Origin: a virus
Strand: one strand, 5' to 3'
DNA: 64,000 bases
Virus record (IMG/VR): IMGVR_UViG_3300005676_000020
Coordinates: 1-64,000 of that record
Part shown: piece by piece, positions 2,959 through 48,029 of the stretch
Layout of the letters: each line of letters begins with the position of its first letter
Position numbering within the stretch: position 1 is the first letter of the stretch
Translations under genes and position numbers: made by a program
Notes under the pieces: generated by a model
The model's database searches: none
What the model was told of the DNA's origin: nothing
The model's input: the letters and a program-made list of their open reading frames with translations, nothing else

Positions 2959-2990
2959 CAAAGATACAAACGAATTTTGTATTTCCAAAA
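2959..2990 (-). promoter_or_regulatory. Bacteroidota-type sigmaA promoter firing leftwards
   Basis: The minus strand reads TTTTGGAAATAC...TATCTTTG. The TAnnTTTG -7 box is at 2959-2966. Confidence 0.55.
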
Positions 2991-3038
2991 AAAAGTCTAA
3001 TTTTATACTGTCAATTTATCAATAATTAAAAAGACAGC

Positions 3039-4565
3039 ATGTCAAACAAAAAAATCAAGAGGCTTTTCTTCGACATAGAAACGTCTCCAAATGTAGGACT
3101 TTTTTGGTCAGCCGGTATAAAGCAGACCATAGACTATGATAACATTCTTGAGGAGAGAGCTATCATCTGTATTTGTTTCAAGTGGGAGGGTAAAGGAGTT
3201 CAGTATCTTACTTGGGATAAACATCATAATGATAAGTCGATGCTAGAGAAGTTTATCAAGATTGCCAACACGGCCGATGAGCTTGTTGGACACAACTGTG
3301 TTGAGATAAACACCCCTGTTTTAACTCAGGATTTGAAATGGGTGAAGGCGGGAGATTTGGTTGTGGGGCAGAAACTCGCAGGGTTTGAGGAAGGTAATAG
3401 ACCCGGATTTCCTGTAAGAGATAGAGATAGTAGATGGAATAGTGGATATAAAAGGAAGTTAATAGGTTGTGAGGTAACAAATTTTACTATAGAGGAAGCC
3501 GATTGTTTGCGGGTAACTTTTGATAATGGTGATTCAATAATCACTACAAGGAATCATTACTGGTTATCTATGGGTATAAAAGATAATTATCAAAAATGGA
3601 GAATGTCCTCAGACCTTAAACCAGGTCATAGAATCATTAAGTATTTTTCCCCTTGGGAGAAAGAAGATTCTTATGAAGGTGGTTGGTTATCAGGTTTTAT
3701 ATCGGGAGAGGGTACATTAAAGGCAGGAGGAGATTCTGGACTCTCGATAGATTTTTGCCAGAGACCTGGAGTTACCTGGAGCAAGGCATTAGAAACATGT
3801 AGGGAGCTTGGTATCAATGTTTCTAAAAAGAGAGCCCCTAAAACGGGAGGTCTTGGAAAACAGGATACTTTGTATACGGGGATTACTGGTGGTAAGTTTA
3901 AAACTTTAGAATATATTGGACGATTAGAGATTGATAGATTTTTACAAAAAATTAATTGGAACAAACTCGGGTATCTTAAAGGAAAAGGTCTGGAAGTTGC
4001 AAAAGTTGTAAAAGTTGAAGAGGTTGGGGTTAGGAAAGTAGCTGTATTTTCTACTAGTTCCAAGACATTTTTTGGAGCTGGATATCCAATGCATAATTGT
4101 GACAAGTACGATTTGGCCTGGATAAGAACCCGGTGCCTGTTTCACCGAATACCTATGTTCCCTTCGTATACGACAGTGGACACACTGAAAGTCTCCAGAA
4201 GTAAATTTAGGTTTAACTCCAACCGCCTGGACTATATCTCAAAGTACCTTGGAATAGGTAAGAAGATAAAGACCGGCGGTTTTGACTTATGGAAAAAGGT
4301 TATGCTTAACGATGCTGCAGCTCTCAAGAAAATGGTCAACTACTGTAAAGGTGACGTAAGGCTTCTTGAGGATGTTTACTCAGAGATGAGAAATCACATA
4401 CCGCCAAAGACCAGTGTGACCCAGGAACGTCGTAGCTGCCCTGAGTGTGGTTCCAATCACTCCATTATCCATAAGAGAAGGATTTCGGGCGCCGGCTTGG
4501 TCAAAATACAGATGCAATGCCAGGACTGCGGAAAGTTCAATACGATACCGGGAACTAAGAAATAA
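3039..4565 (+). CDS. DnaQ/RNase H-like 3'-5' exonuclease with C-terminal Zn ribbon, intein-containing
   Basis: ExoI FFDIETSP, ExoII VGHN|CDKYD (split by the intein), ExoIII YCKGDV, and CPEC...CQDC. The spliced product would be 241 aa. Confidence 0.85.
   Translation: MSNKKIKRLFFDIETSPNVGLFWSAGIKQTIDYDNILEERAIICICFKWEGKGVQYLTWDKHHNDKSMLEKFIKIANTADELVGHNCVEINTPVLTQDLKWVKAGDLVVGQKLAGFEEGNRPGFPVRDRDSRWNSGYKRKLIGCEVTNFTIEEADCLRVTFDNGDSIITTRNHYWLSMGIKDNYQKWRMSSDLKPGHRIIKYFSPWEKEDSYEGGWLSGFISGEGTLKAGGDSGLSIDFCQRPGVTWSKALETCRELGINVSKKRAPKTGGLGKQDTLYTGITGGKFKTLEYIGRLEIDRFLQKINWNKLGYLKGKGLEVAKVVKVEEVGVRKVAVFSTSSKTFFGAGYPMHNCDKYDLAWIRTRCLFHRIPMFPSYTTVDTLKVSRSKFRFNSNRLDYISKYLGIGKKIKTGGFDLWKKVMLNDAAALKKMVNYCKGDVRLLEDVYSEMRNHIPPKTSVTQERRSCPECGSNHSIIHKRRISGAGLVKIQMQCQDCGKFNTIPGTKK
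3297..4097 (+). mobile_element. intein (267 aa) with LAGLIDADG-type endonuclease region
   Basis: Begins CVEINTPVLT, block B TTRNHYW, LAGLIDADG-like WLSGFISGEG, ends PMHN followed by Cys+1. Confidence 0.9.
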
Positions 4566-5211: not shown

Positions 5212-5830
5212 GACTGTCCACCAGGACAACTTATACGTTAGCGATCGGCTGATATACTCCCTCATTAAAAAACATCTGGCTCTCTTCCTTTACCGGGAAG
5301 ATTCCAAGATGAAGATATCCCAGATACGGGCCATCTTTACAGTCCTCCCATGTGTAGAACTGATAGATGTAGACCTTGTCGAGGCTAATTGTCTTGGCCT
5401 GAAGTCAGATTGTACGATAAAAAGAACCAAGAAGAAGTTGCCGCCGTTAATCCAGGGTTTTAACATGCCTATTATAGGCTCTGTAAGCTCTATAGACGGC
5501 CGTATTTTTTTGACGGCTACAACCCCAGCACAGTATGTAAAGAAGGCTAATGCGTCTGATTTTAAGTATAATAAGACTTTATACTTCTGGTACCTCAACG
5601 GATACCTATATTTTCCTAATTTGACATGGGATGCGGTTCGCGTAGAGGTGGTTCTTGATGGCGTGGCTTTGGATAAAGATGGTCAGGTAGATGAATGTGC
5701 CCAGGCCCAGGATGTCGAGTTTGGCATACCTGAATATCTCATGTCCACGGTTCAGGCAGAAGTCATTAAAGACTTATCGCTAATGTTCCAGATACCAAAG
5801 GATCCGGTAATAGATAAACAAACAACATAA
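5162..5830 (+). CDS. tail ring / tubular protein
   Basis: SDRLIY, PCVELI, RTKKKLP and YFWYLNGYLY patterns, plus crAss-like tail gene synteny. Confidence 0.6.
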   Translation: MNILIGELISQIRNLFKTVHQDNLYVSDRLIYSLIKKHLALFLYREDSKMKISQIRAIFTVLPCVELIDVDLVEANCLGLKSDCTIKRTKKKLPPLIQGFNMPIIGSVSSIDGRIFLTATTPAQYVKKANASDFKYNKTLYFWYLNGYLYFPNLTWDAVRVEVVLDGVALDKDGQVDECAQAQDVEFGIPEYLMSTVQAEVIKDLSLMFQIPKDPVIDKQTT

Positions 5831-32530: not shown

Positions 32531-33000
32531 TAGACTTAAAAAAAACAGAAAAGGATCTTTTCGGCAAGGTCGCAAATATCCTTGTAGCGTTCATGGTGCT
32601 TGCTTTATGGATAAAGACAATGCACCTTTTTGAAGGGTGGTTATTCTCCACCGAACTGATTTCCCAACTGTTTTTCTACCAGTATCAACACCCGCAACTT
32701 ATAAATATTTACCTGTTCTGTATAGCGGCGCCGATAGGGGAGGAAGTAGTCTTCAGGCATTTCCCTTTACAGGTGCTGAAGTCCGTAAAGAAACCGGATC
32801 TGTATTGGCCGGTAATACTGATGACCTCTGTCATTTTTGGATGGTTACACCAGGGTCACCTGAATATTCTCATCCAGGGTATGATAGGTCTGGTATGTAG
32901 TGTTTTGTACATAAAAAATAATCATTGTCTATTGTCTGCCATAGCGTTACATAGCCTATGGAATTTGGCTATCCTGCTAAATTTGTTTAACTTTAACTAA
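32527..33000 (+). CDS. CPBP/CAAX-family (Abi) intramembrane protease
   Basis: EEVVFR, FGWLH and HSLWN motifs set within TM helices. Confidence 0.85.
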   Translation: MIDLKKTEKDLFGKVANILVAFMVLALWIKTMHLFEGWLFSTELISQLFFYQYQHPQLINIYLFCIAAPIGEEVVFRHFPLQVLKSVKKPDLYWPVILMTSVIFGWLHQGHLNILIQGMIGLVCSVLYIKNNHCLLSAIALHSLWNLAILLNLFNFN

Positions 33001-36000
33001 TGGCGAATACGTGTTCAATACTCCGTAATAAAGAGACAGGTGAGATAGAGAAAGTACTGGCCCCAAATGGTCAGGAAAGTATCTTATGGAAAAGTCTCAT
33101 AAGCATAGGGGAGCTTTCTATCAATAAAGAAGATACTTTACGTACCTGGGCGGTTGCCTATACAACAGGGTTTAAAAATGAATTTGGAGACTGGGAGCTT
33201 TTCCAGAAGGCCAGGGAGCTGTCAGGTTCTATAGAAAAAGCTTTCTACAGAGACCTTTTTGAAAATGAACCAGAACAGTTCCTGTTTGAAATGGCTCAAC
33301 AGCTCCGGTCGTCTGATATAGAAGCCCAGGCTGCCAGAAATGTAATGGGCAACGACCTTGCTCAGATAGCTCTACAGTTGTTCCCAAACTCCGTAGTAGG
33401 TTCAAAATACACACCTCAGTTTACCGGTAAGGTAGACAGTAATGGTGAACCTTTATTAGAACATGTTGTCTCTCCCCCAGGTCTCCCTTGGTTTGAAGAC
33501 GCTATACCCTACACTCAAAATTTTGAGGAAATACAGTTCCCGGACCTTGCCAAATACGATGACGAAATCATGCAGCAACTGCCGGTTAAGGTTGGAGCTA
33601 AAAAGCAAGTGATAAAGATAAAGGGGTTGGATGTCACCGAGATGAAAGCCAAACGACCTAAAGAAAAAAAGGCTGTATTTATAGATTCAGACACCTTCCA
33701 GGATATAGGTAAGTTTATAAAAGACGGACCTAAGGACCCTACTGACTTCCGTCATGACATTATACGAATAGGTAATAACATATATGTAAAATCCGGTGAC
33801 AACCTGGCATTCAAGCAGTTTTATCCCTTCCTGGACTTTTCCAAGAAATATAAGGTACGGGGCCGAACCTTTTACTATCTCACCAATAACTTTGTCTACT
33901 CCCCCGGTTCAAGTATCGGCGCTTCCAGGGAGTACAGTATCATGAAAGCCAGGGCTATTAAACAGGGTAAGTTTGGTATAAAACCTATAAAAACAAAACC
34001 CAGGTTGACTAAGAGGGCGAAAGAGGCCATAGAAGCATTTATAGAAAAGAAGAGGAGTTATATACCTTTGATAAAGGAGGAAATAGAAAAGTTTGTTTAT
34101 CAAGTAGATAAGTCCCGACAATCCGCTTCTGACCATTTAAGGTCGATAGCTAACTCATACGAGTCACTGATGGACCCTTCACATAAGGAGGAGTATATAA
34201 AGATATTAGAAAGCCGGTTTCTTAGACAGACCGAAGAGTTTTTTAAAACATATGAGGGTGATGACGGAGAGGATATGATAAAGTCGACAATGAGCACTCT
34301 ATCAAACTATCTTCAAAAATTACCGGCACTGGTATTGTTTAATATGGTACATGACCAACCTGTCTCTGAGTTCTCAGCAATGGAATCTGAGATAGATGAT
34401 GAATTTTCTGAGTTCATATATAGATTTTCTGTTAGTTCAGTCATACCAGAATCGTTTATTTCCGGAGAAAATGGAAGGAGGATAAGTTTAAAAAGTATAT
34501 TTGATACGGTAAATGTAGAAATATTCAGCGACCGGGGCTTACGTGAGAAGTTGACCGCTGACGAAATTATGAAAATATCCAAGTCAGGTATCTTCAGAAA
34601 AGTCGACACGAGTAATTTGAAAAGGACAAAGGCGTTAGCTGTATTTTTGGAAGTTTATGACAGACACGGTCATGTTGCAGCTAATACTTTTTGGTCTGCG
34701 TATCGTAAAAATATAAATACTGCTTCTGCCGAAATCATTCAGAAATATTTTAATAAAAATAAGGGTAGAGAGGAAGATTACAACTCTATAATGGATGATA
34801 TAAGAGATACCCTAAAGGGTGTGGATAAATACTCAGGAGCTTATGTAGATAGTGAGTCTATCGAATACCGAACTTGGTTTTCTAGAATAAGTTCCAGCTT
34901 TGTCCCATTGATCGATATAGCCGAAGGTATATATAAATCAGCTTCTGGGTCCGTAGAACTTCACATACTAAACCGGATGTTGTTAGAAGTTCCTGAACTA
35001 GGTGACGACCCTTACCAAAGATTTAGAAAAATTGTTGACCTAATATTTACCAATGAAGAAGACTTATCAGAAGAAGATAGGTCGGTGTTAGAATATCTCA
35101 AAACTACAAAGGCTAAATCTTTGTTTAACAATATATTGAGAGCTTTCCGTGAGCTACTGAGATTTATCATATACGGTCCAGATTTCCAGTCACGTTCTGC
35201 ATTTGAGGCGTTAAGTGCACAAATGGATAAAGTACATGAATATCTTGCCGGCAGGAATACTGTTTTTTCACTTCAAATCGGAACTGGTGAGCGAAAGGAA
35301 GAAATTGTTGTTAACGATCAAGTAGTAGAGATTAAAAATACGGAAGACCGTGTGAGATATGGGATTTCATCTAATATTGAAGTTGACACTGATGAGAATG
35401 GTGTTTCTGAAACGCTTCTTGAAAGATTTCCGGAAGGCTCTACTCTTCAATATGTTCGGGTGCTTGAGGCTCCTAATCTTAAATCAGTGCCGGTAGATTT
35501 CCGGTTCCCTCATCAGCTCCAAAAATTTATTGCCCCCAATCTAAGCATTCAGGATATACCAGAAGGAGAGTTTAAGTCTTTCCTGTTAAATGAAATGCGT
35601 TATGTTAAGTTAAAGGATTATGAAAAGGAGAGGCTTCGTGAAAAAGGAGGTCTCGGTATGATTTTTAACATTTCATCAGCTGTTTCTAAGTTATACACTT
35701 CCGGTAAACCTAAGTATTCATTTGAGCATAAGGCTCTTTTAAAAACAAATCTAGGTGTCGGGTCTTTACCTATGTACACTCTTGGGGAAAACGGTAGCGT
35801 GTTCAATATCGAATTTGGAGCCGGGGCAAATTCTCCTTTTCCAGAAAGTCTTTATGAAAGATTTAGACTTGACCACGGTCTCAGAAAGTTGTATATAGAT
35901 AAACCTATTGGATGGTTCGGTGGGGTTTATTCAGTAGAAAATAAGACTATATCTGTTACTGAGGTTCAGTCAGACCTTTTACAAAGGTCAAAGACTATCG

Positions 36001-39000
36001 GCGAACTTAGGTCTAAGGTAGAAAATTACTATGACGGTTGGCTTTATGTTTTTACCGGAACTGCAATCAATTTGCTCCTAAATTACTATGAGGATGTAAC
36101 TCATATAAGAATACCGACCTCAGAAACTTACAAAAAGTTCAAAAAAGAAAGTCCTTCTCAATATTATGACAAGATAGCTTCTGTATTCCCGACAACTTTA
36201 TCAGAAGACGGCCGCTGGCATGTTATAAAAGTATCGGATATTTTTGGTAAAATCAGTCCAGATAAAAAATCCCAGTTTGATTTTATGATAAAAGCGGGTG
36301 TCAGAGCTGGGGTTAAGGAGCAAAAAGAGATAACACCAGACCTTCAATCTGACAGGGATAATGCAATGGACATATTGGAAAGTTTAAAAGAAAGTGAGAT
36401 TCTTGGTTCTTACCTGAAAAGCTCCCCTGACCATGTGAGTGAAATAGAAAAATGGATTGAGAGGGAGTTCTCTAATGAGAAACCTATGACCGATGATACT
36501 AAAGGAGGAGAGCTTGTTGGACCGGATGGCGAGGTGATTGAAGAGGATGAAGGTTATGAAGAGACAGATATGGACCGGTTAGTAAGAGAGACAGCTGCTA
36601 ATAAAAAAAGAGAGTATGTTTTCGATCTCGACTGGGCTTTAGATGAGTTGTCTGCGGCTATGAAAAATAACGATACTGCAAGGGTGAATTTTATAAAAAG
36701 GCTTTTGGAAGAACACACGTCAGGTAAAATAAACTTCAACCGTTCTTCTTCAGGTAATTACAAACAAATACTGTCTCTAGATAACCAAAAGATTTTTGAA
36801 GAGCTTATTGCAAAAGGACTTATTACTGAGCGGCGCTGGAATGGTATGTACTTTGTTCCAAAGCAATACCGGGAGCCGTTCAGGAGACCTCCGTTCAGCT
36901 ATCTCAAAAAAGACTTTCGTGATGGTCACTTCCTTGACAAGAACAAGTACGAAGAGTTAAAGGCTATCATAGAGGTTCGTGGACTCAGTTGGCTTGATGT
37001 CAGACCTTCTAATTCAGGAGACTCTTATGTTGTAAGAATATTTCCTACCAGACAAGAGTCTATGCAGACTCGTCTCCATGAGTTTGCTGGCAAAGATGCA
37101 TTCATAAAGATTGCTGACCGCCTGTCTAAGCGACTAGGAGTTCCTTATAAGATTATTGATGCTGAACAGGCCCTGAAGATAACAGAGGACTCACAGATAC
37201 CTTGGAATGGTGAAGGGGCCTTTGCCTATAAAGGTACTGTATATGTTCTGCAGGAAGCGTTGTCTCTGGAGAATGCCGTACACGAATTCTCTCACTTCTT
37301 CATCGAAGCTGTCTCCAAAGAGTCTCCTTACCTGTTCTCAAAACTCTATAAGCAGTTAAAAGATGATCCTTATACCCGGGAGAGATACCTTGACCTGGTA
37401 GAAAGACTATACCCTGACCTATCTGAAGAAGATAAGGTCAAAGAGGTTATGGTTAGGGCGTTAACTGACAAAGCCCTGGGTCTCATAGATGAGCGTGGAA
37501 ATGTTATCTTAGAGGCTATCCGTAAGATTTTCAGAACTCTCGCTAATATCATCCGTACTCTGTTCGGAGTTAGTGTTAAGAACCTGAACGAAAACACCAC
37601 ATTAGACCAGCTGGCAGCAATACTTCTCGGAGAGAATGATGGTGAAGTCCTAGACCTTGGCGACCGTAACACAGGCTTCTTTATGAACCTGTTTCCGATG
37701 TTCAACCGGGACATTGCCAACCAACTGGAAAAGCTTACCGGCTCTACTGTAAAAAGTAGTATAGACTCATTCTTTACTGTTACAGATGCCCACTATCAAA
37801 GGCTTCGTCAGGATAAGGACCTGGAAAAGCTGAAAGAGATACTCAGTAACCAAAAGGGTACTACTCTCGTATCAGATGAGCGTCAGATACTTATGAGAGC
37901 TGCAGACTTTGCCAGAACCCTGGAGGAGAATATGAAAGTCGACCGTGCCGCTCTTATCACCTTTGCAGAGGCTATTGAGGGTCAGGAGGTTATAGCTAAG
38001 AAGATGGCCGATCACGTAGCTTCTGTCGTAACCGATAAGGATATGTCCACTCAGGAAAAGCTGGCTATATTCCGTAAATATAGTTTCATAACCAAAGAGT
38101 GGACTACTGTCGTAGACCTTTTCATGAAGGCTATCAAGGACTCTCCTGTGGGCCGTGGAAGAAATCCCTTGAGCGATTCTATCCAAAACATGATATCAGA
38201 CTATAAGTTTATTGACAACAAGATAAAGGATTTTTACAAAGAGGACGGTCTGCCATCATTGTTCAGAGAAGAGATAGAGGGGAACATCTACTATCAGGCG
38301 GCGATGAAAGAACAGGAGGACAGGATAAAAGAACTGGAAGAAGCCTACAAAAAGGATAAAAACCCGGCTATAAAGAAAAAACTAGACAAGGAGCGCGGAC
38401 TCTTAGAGAGATATAAGCTTACCGACGAAACCCTTGCCAAGTACTTATCAGGTGAGATGGGCGATACCAATCACTATTCAATGTACCTGGAAAGCTACAC
38501 CTCCAATCCAGATCCGATTGTTGGTCACTTCGCTAACTGGTTCATGAAGCACAAGTTCCGTGCTCAGTCAAGAGCTCAGCAGCGCATGACAGCCTTCGAG
38601 AACAAAATCTCAAAGATTTACAAGAAACTAGGCTACAAGCCAAAGGACTTCCAGAAAGTATCAGAGAACCTGGTACAGATAGAGACCTTCTTTGACGGCT
38701 ACCGTAACTTCAAAGGGGAAGAAAGAAAAGCCTGGACGTTCATAAACCAGTATGGTGACGATGCCAACGGCGTCGGCTGGCAGTTTGAATATAACCGTCT
38801 TCTCCAGGAAAGGGAAAGTGCCAAGCAACGGATGCACTCCCCTCTCCGGGCTCCCGGCTATGAGAATATGACCGGTGAAGAAGAGTATCGCCGTAAGAAC
38901 CAGGCCTTTGAGCAGTTTAAGCTTGACTATATGTTTGATGAGGAAGCTGATGTAATCAAAGAAGCAAGGCTTTTCTGGTTCCGTGACGCAAACACCCATA

Positions 39001-42000
39001 AGGCTAAGATGCGCAGGGAAGAGGTCTTAAACGAGATACGGGCACTGGACTATAAGGATTTCTCTAAAGACGAGGCTCTGGAAAAAGTAACGCAGAGTAA
39101 AGCGCTATGGAGAAAGTACCGTCAGCTTGGCTCTATCTATGATGAAATGGGCAACAAAAAGGAGGGTGACGAGCTGGAAATAGCACTTACCATACGCGAA
39201 TACAACGAGAAATACGGTAATTTATACGAATACGTAGAGATTTCAGGGGCTTTTGAGTCTAATCTGAAGTCTCATGAGCAGCAGGTTGCCGATGACCTGA
39301 TGAGTTCTGGTAACTACAAGACAGAAGCAGAAGCCAAGGCTTCTCCGGAGTTCCGGGCGGCCATTCAGAAATGGTACCGTGACAATATCCGTATCACCCT
39401 TACAGAAACCTTCTATAAGGAGCGTTCTGACATTGCTGAAAGGTTAAAAGCCTTTTCAGAAAGCCTTGGTGATCAGAAGATTAAAAAGAATCTGGAAGAA
39501 GTTTCCGAAGCGTGGTCTGAAATAAACCGTATAATCCAGGGTAACCGGGACGATGACCGTCAGCCTATTGGCACCGACCTTTCCGATGAGCAGCGTAAAA
39601 GAGTCCTTGAACTGCAGCAAAAGGTCATGGACCTGAACTCTGCATTTAACCAGGCCAACAACCTGAGCGATGAGGAGGATATTGAGTACGGTCAATATGT
39701 CCTTAAAAATAAGGTGTTCTTCATGGAATTGACTGAGCAAGAGTACGCCAGGATGAAAGAATTGGAAGAAAAGGCCGGTATAAAGCTTACTAAAGACCAG
39801 TACCTGGAAAAAAAGAAGATATTTGATGATTTAAATGCCCTACAATCGAAGATCGCCACGCCCTACTATGTAGACACAGTTAATGATTTCCTGGCCGCAT
39901 CGGGCTCAGAATTGCGTATAACGCCACTCAGCGCTGACGAACTGCTCACGGCTGAGGTAATCCAGCCTATTTTGAGGAAAAACCCAGAATTTAGGAAGTG
40001 GTGGAACGAAAATCACCTGGAAAAACAGATATACGACAAGACTGTCGATGCTGTAGTCCTTAAATATAACAGGTCTTATGTCTGGAACCGGAATGTGCCT
40101 AATGACGAGATGTTCAAGACGCTACTCGATAACGGCGACTACGAAGGGTTGTCAAGGTACAAGTCCCCTTATCTTGAGGTAAAACCGGCCCAGGAGTACT
40201 TTTACCGCCGTCTGAAGCCTGAATTCAGGCATTTCCAGTCCCGGGAAACTCTCTGGATAACCCATGACAACCGCGGAAACTGGCTACCTAAGCCTACAGA
40301 GGCTACTGCCACACCGGCACAGAAGGAGTATATGCTCAAGCATAAGATCCCTTTTGCCAAGCCTCGGTTTGAAAATAAAAAGTATTTGGACCTTCGCGAA
40401 AATAAAAAGGACGAGTTTGAGTTACTTGAAGCCTTTAAACAGTTCCACCTTGAAAGTCAGCAAGATCTGGCCAGGTATGCCCGTCTGGGTCTTGAGGTAC
40501 CACGTCTTCGTAAGAACAGTGTAGAGAACGTAGACCTGTCCAAATTGGCTGATAAACCTAAGGATTGGTGGAATAACATAAAGGGTTGGCTTGGCGCCAT
40601 GTTTATGAAGCGCCAGGATGACTATGAACTGGGTACGGGAAGCTATATAGCGCCGGCTAACCGCGCTCAAACATATGTTCTATCTGACCTTATGGGCGAC
40701 CAGATTAACTCTATACCTATCAAATACATGTCACATGTAGAAACTGACCTGGTTTCTATGGACATTGGCAAAGCTGTAGAGATGTACGCTGTATCTGCAG
40801 AGACCAATAAGGTTCTGCACGAGATAAACCCCATGGCAAATGCCCTTAAAGAAGTGCTTTCTGACCCGGAAAATAAACCAAAGGACCTTACAAAGAAGAG
40901 ACGTAACATCATCAAAATCATCACTGATCCCTTAAAAGGTTCTACCAATAACAACGCAAACAAGAAAGGTAACTATAACAGGCTGAAAATCATAGAAAAC
41001 TTCCTGGAAAGAGAGCTTGAAGGAGAGGTTAACATACAACAGTTTGGACCGTTTATAGAAAAAATCGCCCATGGCCTTATGAAGATAGGTGCCTGGGGTT
41101 CATTAGGTGGTAACATATTTGCCGCGCTAAAGAACGCCGTCGGCGGCCAGATACAGAACAACCTCGAGTCGGTCATGGGTCAGAAGTTCACGCCAAAGAC
41201 CATGATGCAAGCAGATTTGGAATTTGGCAAATTGATGGTCGACCTGATGCGGGACTACTACCAGATAGGCGATAAGTCCCTGTATACGCAGATGTTTATC
41301 CTGTTTGACCCGCTTAACTTCTTTACGCAGAAAGCCGGTTCTAACTTTTCAAAAACTGTAACCCGGGACGCTCTCGACCTGCGCTGGATTATGGGAATGC
41401 AGAAGTTCGGCGAGATCAACATCCAGGGTTCCGCCTGGCTGGCGATGATGCTCCACCAAAAGGTAGCGTTTACTGACCCTCATTCCGGGGTGCAAAAAGA
41501 AATCCCATACCTAGAAGCGTGGGAACTCAAAGATGGTGTACTTTCCTTAAAAAAGGGAGTAGACAGTAAATGGGACAGAGGTAACTCGAACTTTTTGCAA
41601 TTCTCCGCATCGGTACATAAAGTGAATGAGTTAAACCAAGGTGCTTACTCTGAAGAATCCCAACCAGAGATTAACAGATATACTCTTGGTAAATTATTTT
41701 TATTCATGAGAAAATTCTATATACCGGCTTCGGTAAATAGGTTTGCTCCAAAAAGGTATAATGCCGGTCTCGGCTCTTTCCGTCAAGGTTACTGGATGCC
41801 TCTTTTTGAGATGATAAAGAATACGGCTACGGGTCACCCTCTGATGCCTGGTACTGACGATTTCAAGGTGATGTACTCTGCTTCTGAACGTGCTGCGGCT
41901 CTCCGTGCTGCTTCTGAGCTTGCTACTATTGCCCTTATTGGCTTGATGATTAAAGCTCTTGGATTCAACGATTCCGACGATGAAAAATACGATAAGCTGA

Positions 42001-42365
42001 AGGATAACGATTGGTTCCACAACTTCGCCATATACCAGCTGATGCTGATTAAATCTGAGGCTGAAACTTTCATTCCGTTGTTTGGTATGGGCATTAACGA
42101 AACAGTTAGGTTCCTTGGAACCCCTACTATTGCGTTTAACACCGCCCGGAGATGGGTTAAGCTGGCTAACGACTTCGTTTTGTGGACTATCGGCTCCGAC
42201 GCTGCCTTCTATCAGCAGGCTTCAGGTATATATGACGAAGGACAGATAAAGTACCTTGCCGACCTGTACAATATCATCGGCTGGAAGAACTTTGCCTATA
42301 TCACTTCAAATGAAGACCTGCAGAAAGGTATCGTAATGTATTCGGCCATGCAGAAGAGGATATAA
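33000..42365 (+). CDS. giant virion cargo / polyvalent protein
   Basis: 3121 aa. LAPNG.ES.L..FKNEFGDW N-terminus, EVQSD motif, HEFSH zincin, and a long helical C-terminal region. Confidence 0.75.
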   Translation: MANTCSILRNKETGEIEKVLAPNGQESILWKSLISIGELSINKEDTLRTWAVAYTTGFKNEFGDWELFQKARELSGSIEKAFYRDLFENEPEQFLFEMAQQLRSSDIEAQAARNVMGNDLAQIALQLFPNSVVGSKYTPQFTGKVDSNGEPLLEHVVSPPGLPWFEDAIPYTQNFEEIQFPDLAKYDDEIMQQLPVKVGAKKQVIKIKGLDVTEMKAKRPKEKKAVFIDSDTFQDIGKFIKDGPKDPTDFRHDIIRIGNNIYVKSGDNLAFKQFYPFLDFSKKYKVRGRTFYYLTNNFVYSPGSSIGASREYSIMKARAIKQGKFGIKPIKTKPRLTKRAKEAIEAFIEKKRSYIPLIKEEIEKFVYQVDKSRQSASDHLRSIANSYESLMDPSHKEEYIKILESRFLRQTEEFFKTYEGDDGEDMIKSTMSTLSNYLQKLPALVLFNMVHDQPVSEFSAMESEIDDEFSEFIYRFSVSSVIPESFISGENGRRISLKSIFDTVNVEIFSDRGLREKLTADEIMKISKSGIFRKVDTSNLKRTKALAVFLEVYDRHGHVAANTFWSAYRKNINTASAEIIQKYFNKNKGREEDYNSIMDDIRDTLKGVDKYSGAYVDSESIEYRTWFSRISSSFVPLIDIAEGIYKSASGSVELHILNRMLLEVPELGDDPYQRFRKIVDLIFTNEEDLSEEDRSVLEYLKTTKAKSLFNNILRAFRELLRFIIYGPDFQSRSAFEALSAQMDKVHEYLAGRNTVFSLQIGTGERKEEIVVNDQVVEIKNTEDRVRYGISSNIEVDTDENGVSETLLERFPEGSTLQYVRVLEAPNLKSVPVDFRFPHQLQKFIAPNLSIQDIPEGEFKSFLLNEMRYVKLKDYEKERLREKGGLGMIFNISSAVSKLYTSGKPKYSFEHKALLKTNLGVGSLPMYTLGENGSVFNIEFGAGANSPFPESLYERFRLDHGLRKLYIDKPIGWFGGVYSVENKTISVTEVQSDLLQRSKTIGELRSKVENYYDGWLYVFTGTAINLLLNYYEDVTHIRIPTSETYKKFKKESPSQYYDKIASVFPTTLSEDGRWHVIKVSDIFGKISPDKKSQFDFMIKAGVRAGVKEQKEITPDLQSDRDNAMDILESLKESEILGSYLKSSPDHVSEIEKWIEREFSNEKPMTDDTKGGELVGPDGEVIEEDEGYEETDMDRLVRETAANKKREYVFDLDWALDELSAAMKNNDTARVNFIKRLLEEHTSGKINFNRSSSGNYKQILSLDNQKIFEELIAKGLITERRWNGMYFVPKQYREPFRRPPFSYLKKDFRDGHFLDKNKYEELKAIIEVRGLSWLDVRPSNSGDSYVVRIFPTRQESMQTRLHEFAGKDAFIKIADRLSKRLGVPYKIIDAEQALKITEDSQIPWNGEGAFAYKGTVYVLQEALSLENAVHEFSHFFIEAVSKESPYLFSKLYKQLKDDPYTRERYLDLVERLYPDLSEEDKVKEVMVRALTDKALGLIDERGNVILEAIRKIFRTLANIIRTLFGVSVKNLNENTTLDQLAAILLGENDGEVLDLGDRNTGFFMNLFPMFNRDIANQLEKLTGSTVKSSIDSFFTVTDAHYQRLRQDKDLEKLKEILSNQKGTTLVSDERQILMRAADFARTLEENMKVDRAALITFAEAIEGQEVIAKKMADHVASVVTDKDMSTQEKLAIFRKYSFITKEWTTVVDLFMKAIKDSPVGRGRNPLSDSIQNMISDYKFIDNKIKDFYKEDGLPSLFREEIEGNIYYQAAMKEQEDRIKELEEAYKKDKNPAIKKKLDKERGLLERYKLTDETLAKYLSGEMGDTNHYSMYLESYTSNPDPIVGHFANWFMKHKFRAQSRAQQRMTAFENKISKIYKKLGYKPKDFQKVSENLVQIETFFDGYRNFKGEERKAWTFINQYGDDANGVGWQFEYNRLLQERESAKQRMHSPLRAPGYENMTGEEEYRRKNQAFEQFKLDYMFDEEADVIKEARLFWFRDANTHKAKMRREEVLNEIRALDYKDFSKDEALEKVTQSKALWRKYRQLGSIYDEMGNKKEGDELEIALTIREYNEKYGNLYEYVEISGAFESNLKSHEQQVADDLMSSGNYKTEAEAKASPEFRAAIQKWYRDNIRITLTETFYKERSDIAERLKAFSESLGDQKIKKNLEEVSEAWSEINRIIQGNRDDDRQPIGTDLSDEQRKRVLELQQKVMDLNSAFNQANNLSDEEDIEYGQYVLKNKVFFMELTEQEYARMKELEEKAGIKLTKDQYLEKKKIFDDLNALQSKIATPYYVDTVNDFLAASGSELRITPLSADELLTAEVIQPILRKNPEFRKWWNENHLEKQIYDKTVDAVVLKYNRSYVWNRNVPNDEMFKTLLDNGDYEGLSRYKSPYLEVKPAQEYFYRRLKPEFRHFQSRETLWITHDNRGNWLPKPTEATATPAQKEYMLKHKIPFAKPRFENKKYLDLRENKKDEFELLEAFKQFHLESQQDLARYARLGLEVPRLRKNSVENVDLSKLADKPKDWWNNIKGWLGAMFMKRQDDYELGTGSYIAPANRAQTYVLSDLMGDQINSIPIKYMSHVETDLVSMDIGKAVEMYAVSAETNKVLHEINPMANALKEVLSDPENKPKDLTKKRRNIIKIITDPLKGSTNNNANKKGNYNRLKIIENFLERELEGEVNIQQFGPFIEKIAHGLMKIGAWGSLGGNIFAALKNAVGGQIQNNLESVMGQKFTPKTMMQADLEFGKLMVDLMRDYYQIGDKSLYTQMFILFDPLNFFTQKAGSNFSKTVTRDALDLRWIMGMQKFGEINIQGSAWLAMMLHQKVAFTDPHSGVQKEIPYLEAWELKDGVLSLKKGVDSKWDRGNSNFLQFSASVHKVNELNQGAYSEESQPEINRYTLGKLFLFMRKFYIPASVNRFAPKRYNAGLGSFRQGYWMPLFEMIKNTATGHPLMPGTDDFKVMYSASERAAALRAASELATIALIGLMIKALGFNDSDDEKYDKLKDNDWFHNFAIYQLMLIKSEAETFIPLFGMGINETVRFLGTPTIAFNTARRWVKLANDFVLWTIGSDAAFYQQASGIYDEGQIKYLADLYNIIGWKNFAYITSNEDLQKGIVMYSAMQKRI

Positions 42366-42703: not shown

Positions 42704-43336
42704 TTATAACAATCTCAGCACCTTGATTGAACCTCCTGTGATTTTCGGAAAGACGTCCCATCCGCCAGGGGCTTGATCTGCGGGAATTCTATCCATCTCC
42801 ACTTGTACATCAAACACTCTGGGTTGAGGTAGCAGTTTGTTTATAAGATATTTGAATGCTTTGCCCTTTTCTGCGCCATACTCATTTCTCATCTTTACCT
42901 CATTGAGTTGTTCAGAGTTAATAGAATCCAGGATGTGAATTACATCCTCTTCATTGAACCTCTTCTCATTAAGAGACTGTGCTGTTTTAAAACCTTCGAG
43001 GAAACCGCAATATGCATAGTCATCGAAGTCATTTACTGCATACTCAGCCGCCAACTCCTCAACATCAACCCATCCAATCTTCTTACAATCTTCTTCTGAT
43101 AAAGCAGAGAAGTCTACTGAAGGTAGTTCAGGAATACCTGCTATAATTTTCTTTTGGTTTCTTTCATCAATGTCGTTGAGGTTATCCACTTGCCAAATTG
43201 TCCATTCACCTGTAGTTAGTTTCTCTGCTACATGGTACGGGAAAATGTCTCGTACATCTGGTTCATAACTAACCAGTATCGGCTGTGGTAACATCATTAT
43301 CAATTGTATATTCATAGTCTTTTTTTTATTTAGCAC
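42704..43336 (-). CDS. hypothetical protein
   Basis: Long open frame, probably starting at MNIQLI (43315). No recognisable catalytic motif. Confidence 0.6.
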   Translation of the reverse strand: MLNKKKTMNIQLIMMLPQPILVSYEPDVRDIFPYHVAEKLTTGEWTIWQVDNLNDIDERNQKKIIAGIPELPSVDFSALSEEDCKKIGWVDVEELAAEYAVNDFDDYAYCGFLEGFKTAQSLNEKRFNEEDVIHILDSINSEQLNEVKMRNEYGAEKGKAFKYLINKLLPQPRVFDVQVEMDRIPADQAPGGWDVFPKITGGSIKVLRLL

Positions 43337-43598
43337 CCTCTTGTCTTATATTGTATGTTTAAGCTCAACGCTCTATACACCTTTATAAGAGTAGGGTCAC
43401 GTAGTTAATAGCAGTTAATTACTCTGCATTTATACTCCAATAAAGCAGTAACATTAACTACTTGCTGAGAACTTGTTCATGTTGTAGAGGTAAGTTGCTG
43501 AAGCGACTCTCTTAGCACTCCTTTCTCAAGGGAACAACACGCTACGTCTTACAACGTATATCCAATTTTTAAAGTGGTTTTCGACATTCAGTCCACTA

Positions 43599-43629
43599 TT
43601 GTTTATTCAAACAATATTTTGTATATTTG
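43599..43629 (+). promoter_or_regulatory. Bacteroidota-type promoter for the GIY-YIG gene
   Basis: TTG (43599) - 20 nt - TATATTTG (43622-43629) - 4 nt - ATG. Confidence 0.7.
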
Positions 43630-43633
43630 TAAT

Positions 43634-44173
43634 ATGAACTCTGGCATTTACAAGATAACTAATACTGTAACAGGAGATTTTTATATTGGTTCCTCATGTC
43701 AATTAAACAGACGTAGGAGAAATCATTTTATATCTCTTGAAAGAAACATTAGTCATTCAAAAATATTACAAAGAGCATATAACAAATATGGTAAAGATAA
43801 TTTGTTTTTTGAAGTATTAGCTATATGTCCAAAAGAATATCTACTAAAACTTGAACAATGGTTTATTAATGAACTTAAACCAAAGTACAACATTTGTAAT
43901 ATAAATCCAAATACAACGGAAGGATATAATCATACTAATGAAGATAAAGCAAAAATGAGACAAATAAAATTATCTCAAAATGCTGTAAAATTATATCAGT
44001 ATAATGATAATCAACAACTTATAAAAGTCTGGGATTGTTGTAATGATTATGCTAACTATTACAAAGTATCACCAGCAGCTTTACATAAAGCATGTAGAAA
44101 GGGTCAGAAATGTGCAGGTTTCAAAGTATCTAAAACACCTATTCACCTGCACGATTTCAGTAACCCTCGTTGA
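43634..44173 (+). CDS. GIY-YIG homing endonuclease with C-terminal NUMOD-like DNA-binding segments
   Basis: MNSGIYKITN...FYIGSS...R...H...LQRAYNKYG...LEQ.FI....PKYN (I-TevI-like). Start reassigned to ATG 43634. Visibly more AT-rich than its flanks. Confidence 0.9.
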   Translation: MNSGIYKITNTVTGDFYIGSSCQLNRRRRNHFISLERNISHSKILQRAYNKYGKDNLFFEVLAICPKEYLLKLEQWFINELKPKYNICNINPNTTEGYNHTNEDKAKMRQIKLSQNAVKLYQYNDNQQLIKVWDCCNDYANYYKVSPAALHKACRKGQKCAGFKVSKTPIHLHDFSNPR

Positions 44174-44526
44174 CTTCTTAGTGTGTTGTATTCTTTAAGA
44201 GATTAGCAGCCTCACTGTTCGTAATACCCTCATTGAATTGTACTATCAGTATGTCAACTACGCCCAGTTTATGGATTATCCCGGGCGAAAATCTATTGTG
44301 TTTGGTAGCCGACCTTTCCGCACCTTATCTAACCCCTGATAGCATCTGCATCACTCGGATTAGGGGCTGACCAATAACACGGTACATTTATGGTCATTTA
44401 ACGGATGGGCTTTAAGCGTCTATAAACCCGGACATCTTACCGCCTAAGCGTCCTGTACCACCTCACACAATAGAGTTTTACTGACATCTTGCTGATCCGC
44501 CCCATGTCAGTCTCTTCATATATAAT

Positions 44527-44559
44527 AAAAAACCCCTCCGGAGAGGGGTCTGTTTTTTT
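44527..44559. terminator. bidirectional intrinsic terminator after the RNR gene
   Basis: A6-CCCCTC-CGGA-GAGGGG followed by a T-tract. Confidence 0.8.
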
Positions 44560-44570
44560 CAAAGTTGATT

Positions 44571-47500
44571 TTAAGAACCGCATACACCGCCTTTGGTAAG
44601 GTCGCATATGTCAAAGAATTCTTCTTCAAACTCCTGCCCTACAGACAGGATAGCTTCCTTGTATGGTACTGGGGTAAGAGGTTGTCCTCCCCTTGCACCA
44701 TCCGGGTAGCAGGTGAACCCACGAAGTCTGTGAGCGTACTTAGCCAGTACTTTGGCGAAGTTTACTATCTCACCTTCGTTGTTCAGGTCACTACCCCAGG
44801 CCGGTAGATTTATCGTAGAACTAATTGACATGTCAACGTAGTCCTGTAAGTCTGCCTGGAACTTTATCCTTCTTTCGTAATCTGATGCAAGGTCGAGAGC
44901 TGTCTCAATCTTGTCAGGGTTTATTCCGAAGTGGTCTATCATTATTCTCGCCGTACCGTCTACGACGTACTGATATACCCACTGACTTCTTCCTTTTAAA
45001 TATCTCCTCTTATAAGCAACTGCTATCAGAGGTTCTGCACTTGTCGTGGTACCGGCCAGGATGCCAATGCTTCCTGTTGGCGCTATGGCCCTGTTAGCTA
45101 CCGGGCGGCTTATTCCAAGCCTGTCAGAGAACGTTCTTGACACATAGTCGGAGTGGTTCTTGTATACTGTCATCCACTCACGGAGTTCGTCTGTCATCTC
45201 GTACTTGTAGTTGCGCTTAAGCAACCACTCGTGAAGACCCATGAGGCCTAATCCTATCCTCCGGTTCTTCTCTCTCACCTTATATACTTTCTCGTAGGGT
45301 AAGTCGGCTACCATCGTCCCGCATATGAGGAACTTCATGGCGAGCTCAACCACTTCTACAAGCTCTTTTTTGCTTTCTATATTGGCAAAGTTCAAGCTGC
45401 CAAGGTTGCATACGTCACTGTCGTCTTCAGAAGTAACCTCTGTACAATTGGATATAACCACCCCTTCGGCCATGAAAGAGTGCTCCTCAACCTTAACGTC
45501 GCAGCAGTATACATCCTGAACTTCTCCAAGAGACAAATCTGTGATTTTGATGCTGCTTTTGCGGTAAGCTTCGTGGTTCTTGACTTTGAGACGGAAAGTT
45601 GGAATCATTTCTGCAAACTTGCCAATATACGATCCCATCACGTTTAAGAAGTAGCATTCCCCTTCTCCAGTATACCCACTTTTTCCACTCCTGTAGATGT
45701 TGGACAGGATGCCGTAGCTTTCCAGAGATCTCCGAACACCTTGTAAAAAATCGTAGTGTTTGGAACAGAGTCTCACCCTATGTTGTTTGTCACAGTAGCT
45801 ACCGTCAGAGTCGAAAAGGCCTGCCAAGAAGCTAGTATTTGTGAGATTATAAGGAAATTGATCTTTTGCCAACCCCAGGAAGGTTTGAGAAGGGACATAC
45901 ATTCTAGTATAACCTCTTGGTGTCAAAGGATTTATTGATCTGAACAGTGTTTGGTCCATCCGGGTTAAGCACTGCTTCTTTTCATCATTACATAGCGACA
46001 GTTCAGCCCCACCATCTTTTCTGAAACTTCCGTCACCGTATATAAACCCTAAGGTGTATGAGTGTTCATCGAACTTCTCCGGATTGCTTTCAGGAAGGGA
46101 TGTATGAACAACATCTCCGATTTTCAGATCCTTTGCTTTAACTCTTTGTATTTCTGCAAGTTTTCGACGATGTCCTTTCCCAGAATATCTTTCAATAAGA
46201 AATTCGTGGTCAAAGTCAGCCTCTATTTCCCTACCGCCGGTCATCTCTACCATAATAGTGTTGACGCTAGACTTCGTTTTGACAAATCTGGTCTTGGCCC
46301 ACCGTTTGCCTGTCCAAACCTCTACTTCTTTTCCTAAGGTGTCTGATATCTGTTTATACCCCTGATTGGTCAGTATCCAAGTTTTTGCACTGACCGGAGC
46401 ATTCCTTAGCGTCTCCTTCTCTTTTTCGTAGAAGTTGAAGCTGAAACCGGGTTCTCCTGTACTAAGTGCCTGTTTAGCGTTCTCGAGGAACACGCTGCCC
46501 ATGTCTCCGGTTCTCTTATAGTTCTCCAGCCATTCAGTATCGTAGTTCACTGAAATATTGGTCATGTCCAGAGGCGCTGGAAAGTTAAAGTCCTTCTCTT
46601 TGAGGTCACCTATGGTAAGGTCTGTTCCAGATACTTTCATATTGTACCAGTCCTTAGCATGTATAAACTCGTGGACGTCAACGTGTTTCCAATTCAGGCT
46701 GGCGTAAATAGCTGAGCGCCTTGAGCCTCCCTGCATCACCTCCCTGCCAATCTCGTTAATCATCTTCATCTTTGGAACAGGCCCAGATGCCAGTCCCCCG
46801 GTTCTGTTAATAACCGAATTCTTAGGTCTGTACACGGAGTAGTCAGAACCTATACCTCCACCTGTCATTAGACAGGACTCCGCCTTCCAGGAGAGGTTAG
46901 CCCAGTCTTCCCGGGAGTCATTCTCACATTTCAGCAGGAAACAGTTATAAGTGTCTATTCCACCATCAATTACAAACCTTTGGTGTACAGGCTCGTACGG
47001 GCAATAAACTTCATCTTCTCCACAAAACTCAATCTTTACAACTTTAAAACCGTAGAAGTTTTCACCCTCTTGGAAGTTCTGCATGAAGATTTCATGTCCT
47101 TCATAAACCTTACCTCCTAAGTCTACGTCCCTGGTTTGGGATCTAAGTTCCCCAGTTATCACTAACCCAGCAAAAGCCGCATGTTTCCTAAACCACTCCA
47201 GGTTTTCTTTCTTTACAGAGAAAAGTTTTCCAGCGCCACCATCGGCAGCTATCCAACCACGTATGAAGGAGGCTATATACTCCACAGATTTGTTTTCTGG
47301 AAGCTCTTTCCATTTCTCTTTTTTATAGCCAAAATATAAGCAAGGGTCTCCATTTGCCGAATCCGGGTAAGTCACTGTACCCTCTGAGGATAAAAGTTCA
47401 AGATACTTTTTATCCTTCTCTGCACAAAGTCTTAGTTGACCGTTCCTGTTCCCGTCCCCAAAAACAAATCCGTGAGCGAATCCTGCGCTGTCAAACCCTG

Positions 47501-48029
47501 CAGAGAATGTATTAGCAGGTACGACGTCACCAACTCTAAGATCGTAGGTATCGGAGCCGTCTATTAACGGCCAGTGGTGAGTTCTGGTGGCTTTGACTTC
47601 CCAAGTATGGTTCTGGTGACCTCTGAAAGAACAAAATGTTATTCTGTTCAATGCTTGTTTTCCATGATTGTGGAATGTTGCCGGGTAATAATTGCCGTCC
47701 ACGGGGGATAGTACATTTAACGTCTTCCCCACCGAAGATTTTAAACTTACCCAACCACTATCTGTCAAAACGTTGGTATCTCCAGACAAACAGTTGTTAA
47801 AGGCTTTAAAAGGCCTTCCTGCGTAGTAAAGGTACCTGCCACCAGGTATGAACTTCATCTCTGTAATAAGGAGTTTAAGGTGCTCCTTTTCACCCCGGGA
47901 CATTTTATCCCGACAAACGTCTTCTACTAGGACATCGGCTAGCTTATCCCATGTCTCACAACCCTCATGTCTGTACTTGTGGTTGAAAATATCTTCTCCA
48001 AACTTGTTCCTAAAGAAAGATTTCTGCAT
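44571..48029 (-). CDS. nrdJ: class II (B12-dependent) ribonucleotide reductase with two inteins
   Basis: FIPGGR, NN|CF, GGGIG, RRSA, GEPG, RNA|CTE, CNLGS, GLGLMG, IAPTG motifs and a C-terminal C....GG.C pair. No small subunit gene nearby. The spliced product would be 552 aa. Confidence 0.88.
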   Translation of the reverse strand: MQKSFFRNKFGEDIFNHKYRHEGCETWDKLADVLVEDVCRDKMSRGEKEHLKLLITEMKFIPGGRYLYYAGRPFKAFNNCLSGDTNVLTDSGWVSLKSSVGKTLNVLSPVDGNYYPATFHNHGKQALNRITFCSFRGHQNHTWEVKATRTHHWPLIDGSDTYDLRVGDVVPANTFSAGFDSAGFAHGFVFGDGNRNGQLRLCAEKDKKYLELLSSEGTVTYPDSANGDPCLYFGYKKEKWKELPENKSVEYIASFIRGWIAADGGAGKLFSVKKENLEWFRKHAAFAGLVITGELRSQTRDVDLGGKVYEGHEIFMQNFQEGENFYGFKVVKIEFCGEDEVYCPYEPVHQRFVIDGGIDTYNCFLLKCENDSREDWANLSWKAESCLMTGGGIGSDYSVYRPKNSVINRTGGLASGPVPKMKMINEIGREVMQGGSRRSAIYASLNWKHVDVHEFIHAKDWYNMKVSGTDLTIGDLKEKDFNFPAPLDMTNISVNYDTEWLENYKRTGDMGSVFLENAKQALSTGEPGFSFNFYEKEKETLRNAPVSAKTWILTNQGYKQISDTLGKEVEVWTGKRWAKTRFVKTKSSVNTIMVEMTGGREIEADFDHEFLIERYSGKGHRRKLAEIQRVKAKDLKIGDVVHTSLPESNPEKFDEHSYTLGFIYGDGSFRKDGGAELSLCNDEKKQCLTRMDQTLFRSINPLTPRGYTRMYVPSQTFLGLAKDQFPYNLTNTSFLAGLFDSDGSYCDKQHRVRLCSKHYDFLQGVRRSLESYGILSNIYRSGKSGYTGEGECYFLNVMGSYIGKFAEMIPTFRLKVKNHEAYRKSSIKITDLSLGEVQDVYCCDVKVEEHSFMAEGVVISNCTEVTSEDDSDVCNLGSLNFANIESKKELVEVVELAMKFLICGTMVADLPYEKVYKVREKNRRIGLGLMGLHEWLLKRNYKYEMTDELREWMTVYKNHSDYVSRTFSDRLGISRPVANRAIAPTGSIGILAGTTTSAEPLIAVAYKRRYLKGRSQWVYQYVVDGTARIMIDHFGINPDKIETALDLASDYERRIKFQADLQDYVDMSISSTINLPAWGSDLNNEGEIVNFAKVLAKYAHRLRGFTCYPDGARGGQPLTPVPYKEAILSVGQEFEEEFFDICDLTKGGVCGS
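45447..46397 (-). mobile_element. intein 2 of RNR (317 aa), Pro1 / class 3-like, LAGLIDADG endonuclease
   Basis: PVSAKTWILT..., LGFIYGDG and FLAGLFDSDG, block F DVYCCDV, ends VISN|C. Removal restores RNACTE. Confidence 0.88.
46944..47792 (-). mobile_element. intein 1 of RNR (283 aa), LAGLIDADG endonuclease
   Basis: CLSGDTNVLT..., TRTHHW, HGFVFGDG and FIRGWIAADG, EVYC, ends DTYN|C. Confidence 0.9.

Follow-up and report, generated by a model that had tools for sequence, protein, structure and literature searches.

Homing endonuclease genes normally ride in an intron or an intein or sit between genes, and homing leaves no target duplication. In phages, free-standing endonuclease genes, intronless homing and the co-conversion of flanks are reportedly established, as reviewed by Edgell et al. 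SegB is a free-standing GIY-YIG (Seg) homing endonuclease whose gene lies in the tRNA gene cluster of phage T4 (PMC13096335). Here, a gene of this type is described in a stretch of viral DNA of 64,000 nucleotides (nt), positions 1 to 64,000 of the 142-kb IMG/VR virus record IMGVR_UViG_3300005676_000020, which is referred to as the window; the gene lies on the plus strand inside the minus-strand gene of a large structured RNA. In the favoured account, to which a probability of about 0.7 is assigned, a free-standing Seg-like GIY-YIG gene would have entered a long phage non-coding RNA (ncRNA) gene, either through the repair of a double-strand break or through recombination, with a divergent phage as the donor. 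Like the Seg genes of T4-like phages, among them segB, the window gene is small and I-TevI-like, has its own promoter and lacks a surrounding intron or intein; its presence varies among close relatives, and it stands among stable-RNA genes and is accompanied by a co-conversion-like replacement of its flanks. Unlike them, it runs antisense to its neighbours, resides in a large and ornate RNA gene rather than between tRNAs, and is without its original 3' end, so that its stop codon is supplied by an RNA helix; moreover, its host is probably a Bacteroidota phage, and its activity is a prediction.

The gene occupies an interval of about 1.25 kb between the stop codon of a ribonucleotide reductase (RNR) gene (44571, minus strand) and the ATG of a gene for a 203-amino acid (aa) protein (43315, minus strand). 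This interval contains a single credible open reading frame (ORF), which is located on the plus strand. ORF calling and domain matches confirmed the GIY-YIG reading frame that an earlier note on this DNA had recognised (43574/43634-44173). The ATG at 43634 was chosen as the true start because the homologues begin with MNSGIY, and the product is thus a protein of 179 aa encoded by 43634-44173. The Pfam family GIY-YIG (PF01541) covers residues 3-86 (E 1.4e-7, above the cut-off), and PHROG homing-endonuclease families match the whole protein (best E 6e-24). Residues 1-91 correspond to the catalytic domain of I-TevI, the endonuclease of the T4 td intron (PDB 1MK0/1LN0); the structure 1MK0 aligns with these N-terminal 91 residues with an E-value of 1e-10, and the catalytic positions G4-I5-Y6, Y17-I18-G19, R27, H31 and E74 are kept. 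In contrast to I-TevI, the window gene has no surrounding intron, and the C-terminal part of its product (residues ~100-167), which is conserved with the closest relative, gives no family in a Pfam search at E ≤5. The enzyme itself appears to be an ordinary Seg/I-TevI-type enzyme. Several further claims of the earlier note could be verified: the ORF is AT-rich, with a GC content of 0.23-0.27 compared to 0.39-0.46 in the flanks; it is the only credible plus-strand gene in a minus-strand block, being the sole plus-strand ORF of at least 110 aa that does not overlap a minus-strand gene between 42366 and 64000; and no exons flank it, since the RNA strand carries the RNR stop codon and a terminator upstream and the start of the 203-aa gene downstream.

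A search for relatives of the endonuclease yielded 93 in viral contigs, whose genomic contexts are unrelated, and none of the 80 loci that were kept shares the flanks of the window. The closest relative among the loci kept, L002 (3001-3519), shows 62% aa identity over residues 1-167 and is likewise antisense and free-standing between minus-strand genes, and its flanks are unrelated to those of the window. DNA homology between the window and L002 begins about 40 nt before the ATG, extends to codon 167 (..VSK, ~44134) and then ends. This pattern of shared gene and unshared surroundings is what would be expected of a mobile gene, and the endonuclease gene appears to be one. A BLAST search with the flanks against 80 RNR loci and five whole related viral records gave no match, and no relative of the downstream 210-aa protein was retrieved in the viral-contig search.

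The gene carries a promoter-like element of its own at 43599-43629 (plus strand), in which the string proposed earlier is present exactly: TTG at 43599-43601, a spacer of 20 nt and the octamer TATATTTG at 43622-43629. The octamer fits TAnnTTTG, the -7 consensus of Bacteroidota, and ends 4 nt before the ATG at 43634. The same box with the same 4-nt spacing precedes the related genes in L002, L172, L338 and L348; a generic sigma-70 promoter scan did not list the box at 43622-43629. Because the box stands 4 nt before the start codon and this spacing recurs in the relatives, the endonuclease mRNA is probably leaderless. The 3' end of the gene is composite. The conserved body stops near 44134 (..GFKVSK) and is followed by the tail TPIHLH (18 nt, 44135-44152), which has no homology and is missing from L002. 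The final codons DFSNPR and the TGA (21 nt, 44153-44173) are RNA-gene sequence, since the homology to endonuclease-free alleles extends to 44153. The TGA (44171-44173) is the complement of UCA in GUCAAC (44174→44169), the 3' strand of an RNA helix termed H2, and this strand is kept in all endonuclease-free alleles; the suggestion that the gene borrows its stop codon from the RNA gene was therefore correct. The native end of the ORF is lost, and 18 nt of other origin together with 21 nt of RNA-gene sequence are now read. A perfect 8-bp inverted repeat (gtgcaggt..acctgcac, 25-nt spacer, 44111-44151), found by reading through the junction, covers the conserved KCAGF codons and the non-homologous tail and may be a junction scar.

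That the flanks of the gene are structured RNA on the minus strand was borne out by fold statistics and by covariation within an RNA family. The right flank folds with -105 kcal/mol (z -3.05) on the minus strand and with -86.5 kcal/mol (z -1.97) on the plus strand. The universal core of the family (43333-43573, minus strand) was defined in alignment A5, which contains 82 non-redundant cores and in which the helices were set by hand. In this alignment, 95.6% of the cells are paired, 24 of the 37 pairs changed on both sides, and 253 compensatory cells were counted versus 51 expected; none of 500 shuffles reached this number, and slid controls remained far below it. The window core (43573→43333) forms 35 of the 37 consensus pairs, and its own minimum free energy fold recovers H4, H5, H8 and H9. 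The core consists of H4, a GUAA-loop hairpin (43558→43543); H5, GUGUUGU/ACAACAU (43541→43535 with 43484→43478); H6, a CCUU-GAGA-AAGG hairpin (43534→43518) that is followed by GAACAAGUUCUCAGC; H8, GUAGUUAA/UUAACUAC (43461→43454 with 43408→43401); and H9, CCCUACUCUUAU/AUAAGACAAGAGGG (43396→43336). In front of the core stands a hallmark 5' hairpin (43574-43596, minus strand; stem GUGG/CCAC, loop ACUGAAUGUCGAAAA). Of 81 family members, 69 have a hairpin whose loop is UAAACAUUGAA, 10-200 nt before H4, with a stem of at least 4 bp in 60 of 68, and the stems covary (AGGU/ACCU, ACUCG/CGAGU, AGUGG/CCACU, CUUCGC/GCGAAG and others). The hallmark hairpin is read as the 5' start of the universal core, an assignment suggested by its position and covariation. 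In the window, the hairpin is present and its loop is degenerate (UGAAUGUCGAA, 4 positions off UAAACAUUGAA); the nearest copies of the hairpin occur in L222, whose loop reads UGAACAUCGAA, and in L276.

A subset of the family, called type 1, is longer at the 5' side. Six type-1 alleles (L170, L178, L250, L333, L369 and partly L194) lack the hallmark hairpin, and a stem-loop termed H3 stands in its place, preceded by H1, H2 and an invariant joiner and in some alleles also by a far-5' domain of about 200 nt. The 5' half of the type-1 RNA is found at 44153-44290 (minus strand) of the window with 94% identity to L170 and 99.5% to L178. It contains H1, GCCCGG/CUGGGC (44286→44262), and H2, GUUGAC/GUCAAC (44258→44253 with 44174→44169), which closes a variable hairpin, and ends with the joiner GAGGGUUACUGAAAUC (44168→44153). 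H3 is formed by GAACCAUA/UAUGGUUC in L170 and by GAAACUGU/ACAGUUUC in L178 and L250. An RNAalifold consensus on five type-1 alleles was unreliable owing to large indels, and the helices were set by hand; H1, H2 and H3 each show compensatory changes among the alleles (alignment A3, 5 alleles), and L369 is consistent with H1 and H2. The far-5' domain (44291-44512, minus strand), delimited by folding and by comparison with L170 and L369, consists of a first hairpin (44512→44480) and the long-range helix CUAUUGUGUGAGGUGG (~44473→44458)/CUACCAAACACAAUAG (~44308→44293). The domain is common to L178 and L369, the helix alone is found in L170, and all changes in L170 and L369 preserve the pairs. The sequence TATATATG at 44517-44524 (minus strand), just after the RNR terminator, is one mismatch away from TAnnTTTG and is a candidate promoter of the long RNA, the first hairpin of which starts at ~44512. 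The sequence TAAACATTGAA was considered as a general phage promoter and rejected: it occurs once in the 100-kb genome of the Cellulophaga phage phi14:2 and, with 0-1 mismatch, nowhere near genes in the window.

The pattern CCCTACTCTTAT-N25-55-AAGAGGGTGC, derived from a 3' hairpin common to four alleles, retrieved members of the family from at least 80 viral and at least 120 metagenome contigs, but from only three contigs of metagenome-assembled genomes among 185,579 species genomes. This distribution, abundant in viral and metagenome contigs and nearly absent from the species genomes, identifies the RNA family as phage-specific. The three contigs of the last group (L381, L382 and L383) are labelled Acetivibrio, Clostridium and Nitrososphaerota and are probably misbinned phage contigs. 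One metagenome contig, L314, contains two copies of the pattern 264 nt apart (5326-5648), which suggests tandem RNA genes. Family members often adjoin tRNA arrays and a tmRNA gene. In this respect, and in being large, phage-specific and composed of many helices with GNRA loops, the window RNA resembles GOLLD (RF02032) and ROOL (RF03087); in contrast to these, no Rfam family matches any member tested. Rfam 15, searched with gathering and E-value thresholds, returned only tRNAs and tmRNA for the window, the empty alleles and 11 other family loci, and at E ≤10 the GOLLD covariance model matched nowhere in the 142-kb genome. One cultured phage, phi14:2 of the Crassvirales, has a family member, located at ~2920-3365. 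At its g004-g005 junction, an abundant early and highly transcribed "long non-coding RNA" has been described (bioRxiv 10.1101/2020.03.07.982082). This RNA shares with the family the UAAACAUUGAA hairpin, ..CCUUGAGAAAG.., ACAACACAAAUGAGUUCUCAGC, GUAGUUA../..UAACUAC and CCCUACUCUUAU../..AAGAGGGUGC, and has the same orientation relative to transcription as the window RNA; in the phi14:2 genome, the hallmark motif has a single occurrence, where the RNA region begins. It differs from the window RNA by the absence of an endonuclease gene, a longer region between hairpin and H4 and the lack of window-type 5' domains. Among the members of the family, the one of phi14:2 is that for which expression has been shown.

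The way in which the gene came to lie in this RNA could be traced by comparison with alleles that lack it. Such alleles were found in L170, L178, L250, L333 and L369 (partly in L194), of which L170 and L178 were reached via homologues of the downstream gene and L250, L333 and L369 via pattern searches. The flanks are contiguous in them, and the concern that the two sides might be unrelated sequences never joined in other genomes is thereby dispelled. In the five empty alleles, the sequence that ends at 44153 (..UCAACGAGGGUUAnnGAAAUC, RNA strand) passes directly into H3, followed by an A-rich linker, the GNRA hairpin H4 and the block GCGUGUUG, and they contain no ORF there. Because the empty alleles continue from 44153 straight into H3, the right junction was placed at 44152|44153 (alignment A3); the left limit, 43606/43607, was obtained from alignment A4 with L222. 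The inserted cassette (43607-44152, plus strand, 546 nt) comprises the promoter, the ORF body and the 18-nt tail, coincides with the drop in GC content and is missing from all five alleles. The cassette stands where the long type-1 RNA has its peripheral stem-loop H3, directly 5' of the hallmark hairpin, and the order in the window is intact type-1 5' domains, cassette in place of H3, degenerate hallmark hairpin and complete core. The insert thus appears to lie within the gene as its closest relatives define it, but at a module boundary rather than in the loop of an uninterrupted fold. From the earlier proposal of a homing element in a tolerant loop of a large ncRNA, the mobile homing element in an ncRNA gene can be retained, and the loop has to be given up. 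The complete 258-nt core (43596→43333) was left whole and may stand alone, as in L222.

The left flank has a different history. The 66 nt from 43606 to 43541, which include the hallmark hairpin, are unlike L170 and L178; they share about 90% identity with the flank of L222, in which a sense-oriented GIY-YIG gene stands at this place of the family RNA. The sense GIY-YIG genes end with ..YKQ, ..YKD or ..YKTVD before their stop codons, and the 11-nt sequence AUAAACAAUAG (43596-43606, minus strand; alignment A4) corresponds to YKQ plus stop of an L222-type gene, of which it appears to be a relic. The locus is best described as a recombinant mosaic rather than a clean insertion: an L002-type gene would have replaced an L222-type gene or have come in along with a flank that had formerly contained such a gene. 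An inverted copy of the older gene can be dismissed, because the window enzyme is only 45% identical to that of L222 and the flank is about 90% identical; an inversion of a resident sense endonuclease in situ was also rejected since the frames do not join. A CTATT repeat at the boundaries was rejected as well, as one copy belongs to the flank (43596-43600), the other is found 9 nt into the insert (44139-44143), a 5-mer of this kind is at chance level and a target duplication is not a product of homing. Searches of viral contigs with exact 20-mers from the 100%-conserved tract and with the type-1 joiner pattern gave 0, 0 and 1 matches.

The sibling phage L178 matches the window with 98.05% identity over 3546 nt, a stretch that includes the 3' portion of the 203-aa gene, the gene after it and a giant gene for a 3121-aa protein. 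In the far-5' RNA domain, the identity is 99.5% over 204 nt. Between 44257 and ~42750 (~1.5 kb), with the insert mid-patch, the identity falls to 0-70%, and islands of 90-100% identity remain at 43418-43299. Five empty alleles, one of them in a phage that is 98-99.5% identical outside the patch, show that the endonuclease gene is polymorphic in its presence between related genomes. As the repair of a double-strand break from a divergent donor would leave such a patch, the region around the insert looks like a co-conversion tract. The 203-aa product is only 39% identical overall to its L178 copy (window 42750-44257 versus L178:1-1320), and the 5' ~380 nt of its gene fall within the patch.

Endonuclease genes were also found elsewhere in the RNA family. 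A phmmer search of 164 non-redundant family loci revealed GIY-YIG genes in L222, L172, L338 and L348, all in sense orientation, and HNH genes in L172, L270, L231, L315 and L212, all antisense, and in total about 10 of the 164 loci (~6%) carry a nuclease gene. These genes begin or end ~5-55 nt 5' of a hallmark hairpin; the one exception, the L172 HNH gene, is located deeper in the RNA. On the far side of the sense GIY-YIG genes, ~55 nt ahead of the ATG, the hairpin motif is present a second time. In L172 (2885-4083; also in L173), one RNA member contains two endonuclease genes, a sense GIY-YIG gene (2885-3421) before the hallmark hairpin and an antisense HNH gene (3589-4083, CANCH motif) between the 5' region and H4. 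Since two nuclease families in both orientations meet at one hairpin in about 6% of the loci, the site of the hallmark hairpin appears to be a recurrent homing hot spot in highly conserved DNA rather than the seat of a partnership. As a speculation, the mutated hallmark loops of the window and L222 could protect their own DNA from being cut.

The proposed course of events is as follows. The endonuclease would be made from a leaderless mRNA transcribed from its own TAnnTTTG promoter and would cut the RNA gene of co-infecting phages whose allele lacks the endonuclease, close to the hallmark hairpin or the H3 region. Repair would then copy the cassette in, and donor flanks would be dragged along. 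The host RNA would survive because the insertion point is a module boundary, with the 5' domains (44512→44153) and the core (43596→43333) each remaining intact, and the core would now resemble the short form of the RNA that stands alone. Transcription of the endonuclease gene is expected to continue antisense through the 5' RNA domain to a two-way terminator at 44532-44556. Several points weigh against this account. Cleavage by the endonuclease is a prediction, and so are the ends of the transcripts, the leaderless start and the antisense read-through. No allele was found that could have served as the donor, and the 5'-side junction GAAAUC|GUGCAGG shows no visible homology, for which reason the event must have been at least partly illegitimate. 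The islands of 90-100% identity in the patch could reflect purifying selection on the RNA and not recombination end points. Finally, neither RNAalifold nor inspection revealed a covarying pair between the 5' domains and the core, and the view that the two form one molecule in the empty alleles draws on co-linearity in six genomes and on the lack of a hallmark hairpin or terminator between the halves. Pairings of the joiner (AGGGUUAC/GUGACCCU) and of GAAAUCC with the H1 loop were considered as links between the halves and rejected, as they show no covariation in L250 and L333.

The last of these points leads to the explanation that competes most closely, in which the 5' domains (44512→44153) and the core (43596→43333) would be RNA genes of their own, also in the empty alleles, and the endonuclease gene, lying in the spacer between them, would interrupt nothing, like SegB among the T4 tRNA genes. 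The absence of a covarying pair between the halves is compatible with such an arrangement, the core alone is a complete family member, and in L222 nothing but the endonuclease gene and a protein-coding gene precedes it. In addition, most family members begin at the hallmark hairpin, and the 5' domains occur in only ~6 of 164 loci. In the six empty type-1 alleles, however, the joiner GAGGGUUAnnGAAAUCC passes directly into H3 and H4, leaving no spacer or terminator, and the type-1 alleles lack the hallmark hairpin, which would leave their core without a visible start signal of its own. A structured element was destroyed either way, as H3 was deleted by the event. Based on the gap-free co-linearity in six genomes and the missing start signal before the type-1 core, a single RNA is preferred, and two separate RNA genes are regarded as the less likely arrangement.

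Two other explanations concern the relation between the nuclease and the RNA. The earlier note had raised, by analogy to HEARO/OMEGA loci (IscB/TnpB), a domesticated nuclease that is paired with the RNA. The window shares with these systems only that a nuclease gene stands beside a structured RNA; such genes recur beside this family, and the stop codon of the window gene is inside the RNA gene. Against this, the fold is GIY-YIG, the association is sporadic, about 94% of the RNA loci have no nuclease gene, and those that do contain members of two unrelated families in both orientations, which is the pattern of a parasite. Furthermore, L002 does not adjoin the RNA, L178 lacks the gene despite its 98-99.5% identity, and GIY-YIG homing enzymes are known to locate their DNA targets via protein domains. 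A partnership is accordingly considered highly improbable; no sign of it, or of guidance by RNA, was found. The chance that a degenerate group I intron or another self-splicing element carries the endonuclease is close to negligible. Its attraction is that the flanks are structured RNA with GNRA hairpins and that endonuclease ORFs usually reside in peripheral intron loops, but neither Intron_gpI nor another Rfam family matched the window or the empty alleles at E ≤10, and the flanks do not fold as a group I core (no RF00028 match at E ≤10 in 43200-44700, L170 and L178). There are no exons, as the RNA lies between a terminator and the start of the next gene; the ORF is antisense to the RNA; and the RNA family was found hundreds of times without an interrupted host gene.

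Extending the double-strand-break repair account, one may ask whether at least two endonuclease families, unrelated to each other, home to the UAAACAUUGAA hairpin as a common target and whether cassette exchange at this point creates the modular diversity of the RNA, with long type-1 and short type-2 forms and swapped hairpin tips. The event in the window would then have split one long RNA into two working pieces, and the antisense endonuclease mRNA might also control the 5' piece; this extension is doubtful.

As regards the surroundings of the locus, the two-way intrinsic terminator detected by a terminator scan spans 44530-44556 (both strands), with the minus-strand copy at 44551→44530 and the plus-strand side at 44532-44556. 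On the minus strand it is predicted to terminate transcription of the RNR gene, and on the plus strand it would do so for the endonuclease gene. The RNR ORF (44571-48029, minus strand, 1152 aa) is of class II and contains two large inserts, which are candidate inteins; its closest viral-contig relatives are 68-77% identical over the C-terminal extein. The 3121-aa giant ORF (window 33000-42365, plus strand) is common to L178 (1703-4862). Together with the link to phi14:2 and the TAnnTTTG boxes, it suggests a Bacteroidota phage with a virion RNA polymerase-like giant protein, and the host of the window phage is probably a member of the Bacteroidota.

What sets this locus apart is the intron-less residence of a homing endonuclease gene in an ornate RNA gene, together with the borrowed stop codon, the mosaic flanks and a repeatedly targeted hairpin. 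The insert marks a site at which the RNA tolerates disruption, a module boundary, and the pair formed by L178 and the window phage represents a natural experiment on the role of the 5' domains of an abundant phage RNA. The insert also points to the most conserved DNA stretch of the RNA family as a nuclease target. The value of the finding lies in the widespread and as yet unnamed phage RNA, which is more remarkable than the enzyme.

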